This document shows positions 3,729 through 5,068 of a stretch of DNA of 5,531 nucleotides, piece after piece; the first letter of the stretch is position 1, and each line of letters opens with the position of its first letter. Source of the DNA: a virus (Duplodnaviria > Heunggongvirae > Uroviricota > Caudoviricetes); the IMG/VR virus record IMGVR_UViG_3300029212_000224; one strand, given 5' to 3'. Under the pieces are notes generated by a model, which saw only the letters and a list, made by a program, of their open reading frames with translations, was not told the origin of the DNA and did not search any database. The translations under genes were made by a program, and so were the position numbers.

Positions 3729-4122
3729 CGATGTTCAGCGTGTCACAGATGAAGGTGGCGCGGTTGATCAGCGAGCGCTTGGCGTTAATCGAGTGAAGAT
3801 ATTCGAACGCTGGAAGGCTATCGACACTAGGGATAAGCGTGAAAAGTTCACGGCGCTAGTGCCTGCAATTATGGAGGCTATCCGGATTAATGATTTCAGG
3901 TTGTATCGTGAAATTAGTGACGGAAAAAGCATCACGTACATGATCGCCGGGTTAAACAAAGAATATGGCGATGTGGTGGAGTCCGGACTGCTTTTTGCTG
4001 ATCCTGCCGTAGTGGATCGTGAAACTGACGAACTTATAGAAAAAGCAATTGCTTTCAAACTTGCGTATCGACAGCAATACCAACAAAAAGCTGGATGGAA
4101 TTATGAGCCTTCTTTTTGCTGA
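3703..4122 (+). CDS. hypothetical protein, start uncertain, possibly 5'-truncated
   Basis: Protein-like composition from about 3703 onward (SLKERPNIDVQRVTDEGGAVDQRALGVNRVKIFERWKAIDTRDK...). The tracked ORF begins at 3616, but 3616-3702 overlaps the opposite-strand exonuclease gene and translates to an antisense-looking, Ser/hydrophobic-rich peptide. No SD at any candidate start (ATG 3616, 3703, 3871; GTG 3793). The 3' end overlaps the next gene by 20 nt, which suggests translational coupling. No recognisable family. Confidence 0.45.
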   Translation: MSLKERPNIDVQRVTDEGGAVDQRALGVNRVKIFERWKAIDTRDKREKFTALVPAIMEAIRINDFRLYREISDGKSITYMIAGLNKEYGDVVESGLLFADPAVVDRETDELIEKAIAFKLAYRQQYQQKAGWNYEPSFC

Positions 4123-5068
4123 ACGCCCACTGGTTATAAACACACAGCTTGCGATGAAGATTGGCTTAAATGAAGCCATTGTGTTGCAGCAGTTGCATTA
4201 CTGGTTGAGAGATACCAATTCCGGCATGGAATGTGATGGTGTTCGCTGGATTTACAACACAACGGAACAATGGCTGGAACAGTTCCCATTCTGGTCAGAG
4301 TCAACGTTAAAGCGCGCGTTTGCAAGTCTGAAAACGCTGGGGCTTTTGCGTTGTGAAAAGCTCAATAAATCAAAGCGCGATATGACCAATTTCTACACGA
4401 TCAACTATGGGAGCGAGCTTTTAGATGGTGGCAAATTGAACGAATCCATCGGTTCAAAATGCGCCGCTCCATCAGGTCAAAATGACACGATGGAAGAGGT
4501 CAAAATGAAACGCTCCATTGGTTCAAAACGACCCAATGTCATCGGGTCAAAATGGCCTGATGATCTTACAGAGAATACAACAGAGATTACTACAGAGAAT
4601 AAAAACACTTTTCGTCCGGAAGCTTCGCAACCGGACCCGCAGACCGCTGAACAGGATTTTTTAACCCGGAACCCCGACGCGGTTGTGTTTAGTGCGAAAA
4701 AACGCCAGTGGGGTAGCAGGGAGGATTTGGCGTGTGCGCAGTGGATTTGGGGGCGGATCGTGAACCTTTACGAACAGGCTGCCAGCGACGATGGAGAGAT
4801 CATGCGACCAAAAGAGCCTAACTGGACAGCCTGGGCCAATGACGTGCGCACAATGCGGATGCTGGATGGCAGAAGCCACAGACAAATTTGCGAAATGTTT
4901 GGTCGGGTACAGCGAGATCCATTCTGGGTAAAAAACATCATGAGCCCGTCAAAACTCCGCGAAAAATGGGACGAACTGGTCATCCGCTTGGGACGTTCAC
5001 CTGTACAGCGTTGTGTGAATCATATTTCTGAACCGGATACAGAAATTCCGCCTGGTTTCAGGGGATAA
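4103..5068 (+). CDS. phage replication initiator: N-terminal winged-helix DNA-binding domain plus C-terminal DnaT-like (primosomal protein I-like) domain
   Basis: Tracked ORF starts at a TTG (4049); the first ATG at 4103 (MSLLFAERPLVINTQLAMKIGLNEAIVLQQLHYWL...) is the more likely start. The N-terminal region resembles origin-binding domains of phage initiators. The C-terminus ends ...VNHISEPDTEIPPGFRG, which matches my recollection of the E. coli DnaT C-terminus (...[13 protein letters not shown]). A direct-repeat array lies in the interdomain linker, as in lambda O. Confidence 0.8.
   Translation: MSLLFAERPLVINTQLAMKIGLNEAIVLQQLHYWLRDTNSGMECDGVRWIYNTTEQWLEQFPFWSESTLKRAFASLKTLGLLRCEKLNKSKRDMTNFYTINYGSELLDGGKLNESIGSKCAAPSGQNDTMEEVKMKRSIGSKRPNVIGSKWPDDLTENTTEITTENKNTFRPEASQPDPQTAEQDFLTRNPDAVVFSAKKRQWGSREDLACAQWIWGRIVNLYEQAASDDGEIMRPKEPNWTAWANDVRTMRMLDGRSHRQICEMFGRVQRDPFWVKNIMSPSKLREKWDELVIRLGRSPVQRCVNHISEPDTEIPPGFRG
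4446..4554. repeat. candidate replication-origin iteron array (5 direct repeats, 23-bp period)
   Basis: Direct repeats with core GGT(T)CAAAA(T/C)G at 4448-4461, 4471-4484, 4494-4507, 4517-4530 and 4541-4554; spacing 23, 23, 23, 24 bp. A degenerate sixth copy may lie at about 4424-4437 (GATGGTGGCAAATTG). The repeats fall in different reading frames of the host ORF (IGSK / SGQN / EVKM), so conservation is at the DNA level. Confidence 0.6.
4566..4606. repeat. A-rich ACAGAGA(A/T)T triple repeat, possible DNA-unwinding element next to the iterons
   Basis: ACAGAGA at 4568-4574, 4580-4586 and 4592-4598 (12-bp period), followed by AATAAAAACA. It sits immediately 3' of the iteron array, mirroring the iterons-then-AT-rich layout of lambda ori. 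It is in frame (encodes TENTTEITTENKN), so a protein-level repeat cannot be excluded. Confidence 0.4.

Follow-up and report, generated by a model that had tools for sequence, protein, structure and literature searches.

A lambda-O-type phage initiator that ends in a DnaT-type tail: a candidate motif for helicase-loader specificity

How does a lambdoid phage bring the host helicase to its origin when its initiator gene is followed by no helicase loader? The question is raised by a stretch of 5,531 nucleotides from a virus of the Caudoviricetes (IMG/VR record IMGVR_UViG_3300029212_000224; this whole stretch is hereafter called the window), in which an open reading frame (ORF) of 321 residues at 4103-5068 on the plus strand encodes a replication initiator. 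Among the 314 enterobacterial lambdoid phages of one survey, 34 (about one in nine) have a replication module with a single O homologue; how these phages replicate is there called "not yet understood" (PMC12315714). A sequence-only reading of the window had proposed that the C-terminal 130 or so residues of the initiator are DnaT-like, that no dedicated loader follows, and that the protein could recruit the host restart primosome (PriB, DnaC and DnaB) directly. Here we describe which part of the initiator is shared with DnaT, what the remainder of the protein is, and how the type of C-terminal tail covaries with the type of loader gene downstream.

The initiator ends in RCVNHISEPDTEIPPGFRG. 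By means of BLASTP its residues 302-321 were aligned with residues 160-179 of E. coli K-12 DnaT, 14 of 20 positions being identical (E-value 1e-7) and 11 of the final 13, and no alignment was obtained outside these residues. The NCBIfam model of DnaT (NF002770) is matched by the same residues only, at model positions 160-179 (E 0.0057; 16.3 bits versus a cut-off of 201), and the match to the DnaT chains of the PDB (2ru8, 6aep and 9zbt) is confined to the same 20-residue tail. Since BLASTP, NCBIfam and PDB matches all cover the tail only, the likeness that had been noticed is real, but it concerns 20 residues and not about 130; the residues 205-339 to which it had been assigned follow the numbering of a longer ORF that starts with TTG at 4049. 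Comparison by hhalign of the tail-less C-terminal domain with 79 DnaT orthologues (residues 84-158) gave a probability of 0.08%. The three-helix-bundle domain of DnaT that binds single-stranded DNA (ssDNA; residues 84-153) is not present in the initiator, nor does the latter show sequence similarity to the N-terminal oligomerisation domain or the acidic PriB-binding linker of DnaT.

In DnaT itself the tail is among the best-conserved parts of the 79 Enterobacteriaceae orthologues, and the initiator tail fits their consensus RD[VP]Nx[IV]SxPDxxIPxGFRG as well as the DnaT tail pattern RD[VIL]NxxS[EQ]PDxxIPxGFRG. The folded ssDNA-binding domain of DnaT spans residues 84-153, and residues 154-179 lie outside the crystallised domain, with a poorly defined role (PMC4132743). 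The near identity of the last 13 residues might suggest that host dnaT DNA was captured recently, or that the likeness is due to chance, the tail being functionless in the phage protein. We consider this exceedingly improbable. The tail-coding segment matches dnaT at 40 of 63 nucleotides, and the same codon is used at only five of the 14 identical residues, with serine codons of different families (TCT versus AGC), such that synonymous sites are saturated; recent capture was rejected on this codon comparison. Chance is countered by the pairwise E-value given above and by the conservation of the motif across many divergent phage and plasmid proteins. Furthermore, in 46 unique phage tails the positions that had been left free in the search pattern mirror DnaT: R in 34, D in 25, N in 33, I or V in 39, S in 34 and P in 37. 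Codon divergence combined with the retention of these free positions indicates that the tail has been selected as a peptide and is no recent DNA copy. On these comparisons the likeness to DnaT is genuine and is maintained by selection on the protein.

What precedes the tail belongs to another family. Nearly the whole initiator (residues 17-321) falls in the PHROG "replication initiation O-like" (phrog_391, E 2.8e-93), and a Pfam scan returned no family at its cut-off. The full-length AlphaFold2 model, with a mean predicted local distance difference test score (pLDDT) of 57, comprises an N-terminal winged helix, a disordered linker, a helical C-terminal domain and the tail, the last also predicted to be disordered (Table 1). 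The top Foldseek matches of the winged helix in the PDB are 5kbj (E 0.01) and 4pql (E 0.045), with a TM score of about 0.53 on the target, both being the N-terminal domain of a plasmid Rep protein (RepA_N) bound to DNA; the PHROG "DnaD-like helicase loader" (phrog_6493) spans residues 2-168. From this modelled fold the winged helix is presumed to be the iteron-binding domain. No Pfam match to the N-terminal DNA-binding domain of lambda O (Phage_rep_O) was found in the initiator.

The helical domain connects the protein to lambda O. A tblastn search of residues 176-299 against phages retrieved the C-terminal part of lambda O and its relatives, with 39% identity over 112 residues (E 2e-19), and alignment with the O proteins of mEp237, Edno5 and Meifeng shows 24 invariant columns. 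When modelled on its own the domain has a core pLDDT of 80-89. It belongs to a family of 2,898 representative clusters (E <= 1e-3), and Pfam PF09524 (Phg_2220_C-like) was not matched by the initiator at E <= 0.1. Given 39% identity to lambda O and an hhalign probability of 0.08% versus DnaT, the domain is of the lambda-O type. These alignments establish homology between residues ~183-295 and the P-interacting domain at the C-terminus of lambda O. In classical genetics the C-terminal part of O is the part that works with P. The initiator belongs to the lambda-O family rather than to the DnaT-domain proteins and is of an ordinary kind; only its tail, net acidic and proline-rich, is unusual.

If the protein carries the P-interacting domain, then which loader does it work with? 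The next gene begins 41 nucleotides past the initiator. Its 140-residue product is a DUF977 protein (PF06163, E 9e-29) without Walker A motif in its translation and without AAA+ or lambda P domain, hence, as the sequence-only reading held, not a loader. We also considered it as a cryptic loader and rejected this, since it has no ATPase motif; moreover DUF977 genes are likewise found downstream of P and of DnaC-like genes, so the protein is no substitute for a loader. The complete phages HannyBb and mEp460_ev081 share the gene order cro, cII-like, initiator, DUF977 (Ren-like). In the whole HannyBb genome, tblastn with four P and four DnaC proteins identified no homologue (best E 0.35), and the sole convincing motif in a Walker A screen of that genome lies in the terminase. 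For mEp460_ev081 no P homologue was found in the replication and nin regions examined. A loader just beyond the window, which would speak against the proposed absence, was rejected for this lineage: the slot after DUF977 holds variable cargo and not a replication gene. Absence of a dedicated loader is not general, however, as a 95.6%-identical initiator (over all 321 residues) has elsewhere, seven nucleotides behind it, a gene whose product shares 49% identity with E. coli DnaC. By these searches the loader-less state is confirmed for the lineage of the window, and it is facultative.

The cargo in that slot (L001:9239-10588, minus; L002:10143-11630) differs between relatives. The anti-phage defence gene PD-T7-1 (E 4e-157) occupies the slot in mEp460_ev081, a Sll1717-family P-loop ATPase with a weak match to a candidate defence family does so in E. 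coli AREA_C483, and HannyBb has other, variable genes there; the gene after DUF977 looks like defence cargo. Loader-less modules that lack DUF977 have a small protein of 136-165 residues directly after the initiator (L091:2965-3459, L254:3902-4312 and L377:4487-4930), which in SfIV and L254 consists of a winged helix and a PerC-like region. These small proteins of SfIV and L254 were rejected as loaders; one is also found after P (L185).

Tail and loader were then compared over 161 viral loci with lambda-O-type C-terminal domains, classified by tail and by downstream genes. None of the 82 loci with a DnaT-type tail has a P gene; 24 have a DnaC-like gene, 54 a DUF977 or SfIV_42-type gene and no loader, and four neither. 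Lambda-type tails (for instance ...TDWIYGVDL or ...ESWEDFI) are found at the other 79, where P is present in 77 and neither gene in two, with no case of a DnaC-like gene or of a DUF977 or SfIV_42-type gene without loader. The start of P overlaps the end of the lambda-tailed initiator, and the DnaC-like gene of the 24 loci lies seven nucleotides downstream of its initiator; the DnaT-tailed set to which these 24 belong consists mostly of close kin of the window. Particularly informative is P0034, whose initiator is 71-73% identical to the window protein and is likewise flanked by YdaT and DUF977 genes: here the tail is lambda-type, and a P gene (PF06992) is inserted between initiator and DUF977. 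Variant DnaT-type tails accompanied by neither P nor DnaC occur in SfIV (YSQIPAGFRG), in a Citrobacter/Salmonella family (DTRIPEGFRG) and in L254/L255 (DYEIPDGFRG). A separate pattern scan yielded, among the matches listed, at least 116 further tail-bearing viral ORFs of all classes, of which none has P, 57 have a DnaC-like gene, 45 neither, and 14 have flanks too short to judge. In the 161 plus at least 116 viral loci (matches listed), the DnaT-type tail and lambda P never occur together. The pairing of a tail-bearing gene with dnaC has its counterpart in E. coli, where dnaT ends two nucleotides before dnaC.

The tail is not bound to one protein architecture. The phage initiators that end in it have C-terminal regions of four or more unrelated kinds: SPN1S, with a full DnaT-type C-terminal domain; the YdaU/Gifsy-2 kind (Rac YdaU, the Gifsy-2 "O" and a Klebsiella phage protein); the Tritos/Stx 75/02 kind; and the lambda-O type. 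RepA of an IncU/IncX6 KPC plasmid has it as well (...GEPDSEIPPGFRG). In this RepA, the "replication initiator protein A" of plasmid pKPN43G-KPC (L376:372-1400), a lysine/glutamate-rich linker leads to ...NPGEPDSEIPPGFRG; use of the tail thus extends to a plasmid initiator that has no kinship with any of the phage proteins. Recombination joints flank the 60-nucleotide tail-coding segment on both sides (at 4993, 5006-5008 and 5068; L008, L009, L175 and L142). The P0034 locus is 80% identical to the window up to 4993, Tritos is homologous over 5006-5531 at 90% with no homology upstream, Stx 75/02 has 5008-5068 in common, followed by an inserted dnaC and DUF1627 gene before homology resumes at 5100, and the homology of L142 ends at the stop codon, 5068. 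In Tritos and Evi the tail and the DUF977 gene travel jointly behind an unrelated initiator body. Within the lambda-O C-terminal-domain family, about 12-16 of 149 representatives at 50% identity have a DnaT-type tail and many others have lambda-like or other tails, and these varied endings mark the extreme C-terminus as a hot spot of diversification.

The reading that we favour, with a probability of about 0.55, is that the tail, a C-terminal motif that moves between proteins, recruits DnaB-DnaC and in this way determines loader specificity. The N-terminal winged helix would bind the five iterons in its own gene, and the tail would act as a short linear motif that fixes which helicase-loading partner the initiator recruits. 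A lambda-type tail, acidic and aromatic, would pair with lambda P, and a DnaT-type tail with a DnaC-type loader, either the DnaC of the phage where one is encoded or else the DnaB-DnaC of the host. With no phage loader in the window lineage, the initiator assembled at the origin would display several tails and may capture host DnaB6-DnaC6 directly. Host DnaC can plausibly stand in for a phage loader, because the initiator that is 95.6% identical has behind it a protein that matches E. coli DnaC at 49% identity, and because dnaT adjoins dnaC. Both the physical contact of the tail and its partner, DnaC or DnaB rather than another host protein, are what we infer from this pattern. Of the host recruitment proposed by the sequence-only reading as a replacement for the P route, the mutual exclusion of tail and P fits the general idea. 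Recruitment through PriB has no such basis: the regions of DnaT that contact PriB are the acidic linker and the N-terminal part (PMC13377028), and the initiator has neither, which leaves this step unsupported.

Several points weigh against loader recruitment by the tail. The 161 loci were sampled around two queries, with the 80 closest relatives taken for each, and are phylogenetically clustered, and independent tail switches are few, about four to six (the window clade, P0034, SfIV, the Citrobacter family, L254/L255 and the lambda/Meifeng side). Except in HannyBb, with its genome-wide Walker A screen, "no loader" means that BLAST against a limited panel of P and DnaC sequences gave no match, and a loader of another type would escape such a search. 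The partner of the tail is read from the co-occurrence of genes. For DnaT, the N-terminal domain and not the tail has been proposed as candidate recruiter of DnaB-DnaC (PMC13377028, 2026). The partner of DopC, which is O-like and has a DnaT C-terminal motif, resembles P (PMC5509034); this would count against the proposed pairing if DopC carries the tail. Finally, a few DnaT orthologues (among L011-L090) have two to four extra residues after GFRG, for instance AK, and one Klebsiella phage initiator (L010:2305-3075) has GPAP there; a free carboxylate right behind GFRG is therefore not strictly required.

A further point of this kind concerns the tail of DnaT, the lack of which (residues 154-179) lowers both affinity and cooperativity of ssDNA binding (PMC4132743), so that in DnaT it may serve DNA binding or oligomerisation. 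In the phage protein, too, it might be no recruitment motif and instead aid ssDNA binding or self-association of the preceding domain. The measured effect, the only one that the literature search turned up for residues 154-179, is modest, with dissociation constants for dT30 of 27 uM for DnaT 84-153 and 9.9 uM for DnaT 84-179 and a lower Hill coefficient for 84-153 (PMC4132743). Yet the tail is net acidic, proline-rich and predicted to be disordered, it is found on at least four unrelated domains as well as on plasmid RepA, and a generic aid to oligomerisation is not expected to exclude lambda P, which was found in none of the 82 loci and in none of the 116 ORFs (matches listed). We regard this role as distinctly unlikely.

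Docking on PriA would make for a different route, in which phage replication would begin via the PriA-dependent restart primosome of the host. The C-terminal domain of DnaT docks on the HD2 and C-terminal domains of PriA via an interface that is hydrophobic and conserved (PMC13377028), and the core of the tail, IPPGF, is hydrophobic too. Such a route would make lambda P needless and would still need DnaC, so the covariation with loader type is compatible with it. The docking is however assigned to the folded C-terminal domain, the text being silent on residues 154-179 (PMC13377028), and the PriA site becomes accessible only once the fork is bound and the cysteine-rich region has moved, a movement that PriB stabilises. 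As the initiator lacks the PriB-binding linker and the filament-forming bundle, it would fill the DnaT site without supplying the later functions of DnaT. The tight pairing with dnaC homologues, at seven nucleotides in phages and two in E. coli, points to the loader and not to PriA. We rate PriA docking as unlikely, and less so than a role in ssDNA binding.

It could also be that the initiator needs no specific contact with a loader, that phages with O only load DnaB via DnaA, transcription or recombination-dependent replication, and that the tail does something else, for example in proteolytic control or in contacting another protein of the SSB-partner kind. O-only lambdoid replication is indeed uncharacterised (PMC12315714). 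The replication module of the window adjoins a RecE-like exonuclease. The tail is, in what we take to be a loose likeness, similar to the acidic-IPF tip of SSB. What this explanation leaves aside is that the tail is shared with DnaT, which acts immediately upstream of DnaB-DnaC loading, and that it is swapped with a lambda-type tail plus P in otherwise collinear modules; to us it is decidedly improbable.

A candidate origin lies inside the initiator gene. Five probable origin iterons with the core GGTCAAAATG, that is GGT(C/T)CAAAA(T/C)G, sit in the linker-coding part of the initiator gene, and the SIGSK repeats of the disordered linker are encoded by them. The A-rich triple repeat beside the iterons, in a region with a GC content of 0.38-0.40 and an AT skew of +0.33 to +0.35, is a candidate unwinding region on base composition. 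The lambda origin is situated inside gene O (PMC5509034, PMC6022878), and by analogy the layout of iterons and A-rich region within the initiator gene resembles it.

The initiator can be compared with several known systems. With lambda O it shares the homologous C-terminal domain, the iterons and A-rich region in the gene, and the position after a cII-like and before a ren-like gene; it differs by its RepA_N/DnaD-like winged helix, lambda O having Phage_rep_O at its N-terminus, and by its DnaT-type tail with no P gene after it, whereas lambda O ends in ...TDWIYGVDL. With E. coli DnaT it shares the last 20 residues (RDVNxxSEPDxxIPPGFRG) and a genomic habit, dnaT and tail-bearing phage genes often being immediately upstream of a dnaC-type gene. 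DnaT is however a fork-restart factor and the window protein an origin-specific initiator, from which the N-terminal oligomerisation domain, PriB-binding linker and 84-153 bundle of DnaT are absent. A chimera of O and DnaT has been published as DopC of Cellvibrionales and Oceanospirillales (Brezellec et al. 2017, PMC5509034), with an O-type N-terminus and a DnaT C-terminal element. DopC is a domesticated chromosomal gene without iterons, paired with the P-like DopE; it lacks the lambda O C-terminal (Phg_2220_C) domain and has a DnaT C-terminal motif matched by 2ru8, whereas the window protein keeps the lambda O domain, adds the tail only, has iterons and has no P.

Among phage modules, Rac YdaU-YdaV, Gifsy-2 O-DnaC and Stx 75/02 gp15-gp16 likewise have initiators with a DnaT-type tail; their N- and C-terminal domains are unrelated to those of the window protein, and downstream of each lies a homologue of E. 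coli DnaC with about 50% identity. Initiators of the Salmonella phage SPN1S type, often annotated as "primosomal protein I", share both the tail and the lack of a phage loader downstream, where a DUF1064 gene follows. These contain a homologue of the whole DnaT C-terminal domain (86-179) and so are genuine DnaT-domain initiators, unlike the window protein. In SPN1S itself (L007:2248-3063) the last ~95 residues are homologous to that entire domain, GKFTMPDSWTPDPDF...WKAEGKAFHHDQWQQKLARS being comparable to DnaT residues 86-179, and the N-terminus resembles Rac YdaU. The resemblance suggests that DnaT and the phage organisers may be of common ancestry. The O-only modules typified by phage LLS (PMC12315714) agree with the window in having one O-homologue gene and neither helicase nor loader, and mEp460-type phages are named there as relatives of LLS; neither a DnaT-type tail nor a mechanism is given in that study. 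Full-text literature searches found no account of the tail as a separate portable motif in phage initiators, nor of its alternation with a lambda-type tail plus P.

The window itself comes from a Qin/mEp460-type lambdoid prophage of E. coli, of which it carries the left arm; its genes are included in Table 1. It is 99.97-100% identical, save one deletion, to the prophage adjoining rspB in E. coli AREA_C483, in which RefSeq has an identical coding sequence (CDS) for the initiator. The replication module is found at 96-98% nucleotide identity in the plaque-forming HannyBb, mEp460_ev081 and PhiR42_1. The start of the initiator gene is overlapped over 20 nucleotides by the 3' end of the YdaT/CII-like gene, and some proteins of this initiator kind are named "Primosomal protein I" by annotation pipelines. 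Relative to AREA_C483 a precise deletion of 3,083 bp (junction 3707-3709) has removed ydfD, dicB, ydfB, ydfA, the cI-like repressor gene and cro, and has also taken the 5' ends of the exonuclease and ydaT genes; owing to it the replication module of the window has no early promoter or repressor. The RecE-like exonuclease ORF has 689 residues versus 823 in relatives, its N-terminus having gone with the deletion, and its start is the first in-frame ATG by default. The deletion means either a defective prophage remnant or an artefact of assembly or sampling.

Table 1. Position of genes, protein domains and repeats in the window, with the basis of each assignment.
Feature	Coordinates	Strand	Basis
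Tyrosine integrase	20-1315	minus	
DUF1233 excisionase	1335-1586	minus	
RecE-like exonuclease with Rv2179c-like domain	1659-3728	minus	
YdaT-family/CII-like gene, 3' part	3710..4122	+	PF06254 E 1.1e-5; phrog_163 CII-like; annotation of relatives
Replication initiator, lambda-O-type with DnaT-type tail, 321 residues + stop	4103..5068	+	ORF list; phrog_391; identical CDS in AREA_C483
N-terminal winged helix, residues ~10-100 (presumed iteron-binding)	4130..4402	+	AlphaFold2 pLDDT 60-85; Foldseek
Disordered linker, residues ~110-174, SIGSK peptide repeats	4430..4624	+	pLDDT 24-31; translation
Five probable origin iterons, 23-24 nucleotide spacing	4431..4562	.	Repeat search, family D1
A-rich repeat, 3 x 12 nucleotides (candidate unwinding region)	4567..4604	.	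Repeat search, family D2
Helical C-terminal domain, residues ~183-295	4649..4987	+	tblastn; alignment; AlphaFold2
DnaT-type tail, residues 302-321, QRCVNHISEPDTEIPPGFRG	5006..5065	+	BLASTP vs DnaT; pLDDT below 50, predicted disordered
DUF977/Ren-like (LygF) gene, 140 residues	5109..5531	+	PF06163 E 9e-29; phrog_142 "Ren-like exclusion protein" E 7.6e-45

In its widest form the proposal becomes tentative, and we hold it with clearly less confidence than the recruitment of DnaB-DnaC itself: phage and plasmid initiators that lack their own loader may load the host helicase by means of the tail, borrowed from or shared with DnaT; the E. coli dnaT-dnaC operon could be a domesticated phage module of tail-bearing organiser plus DnaC; and C-terminal tails could form an interchangeable code of initiator-loader specificity. 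Recent papers describe the route by which the PriA-PriB-DnaT preprimosome recruits DnaB-DnaC as unknown, with no DnaT-DnaC contact demonstrated (PMC13377028, PMC11087952). A single hypothesis would thus address two gaps, namely the replication of O-only lambdoid phages and the recruitment of DnaB-DnaC by DnaT, and a specific 20-residue peptide offers a concrete lead for both questions. Should the hypothesis be wrong, the locus would still be a clean case of sub-domain mosaicism in lambdoid initiators.

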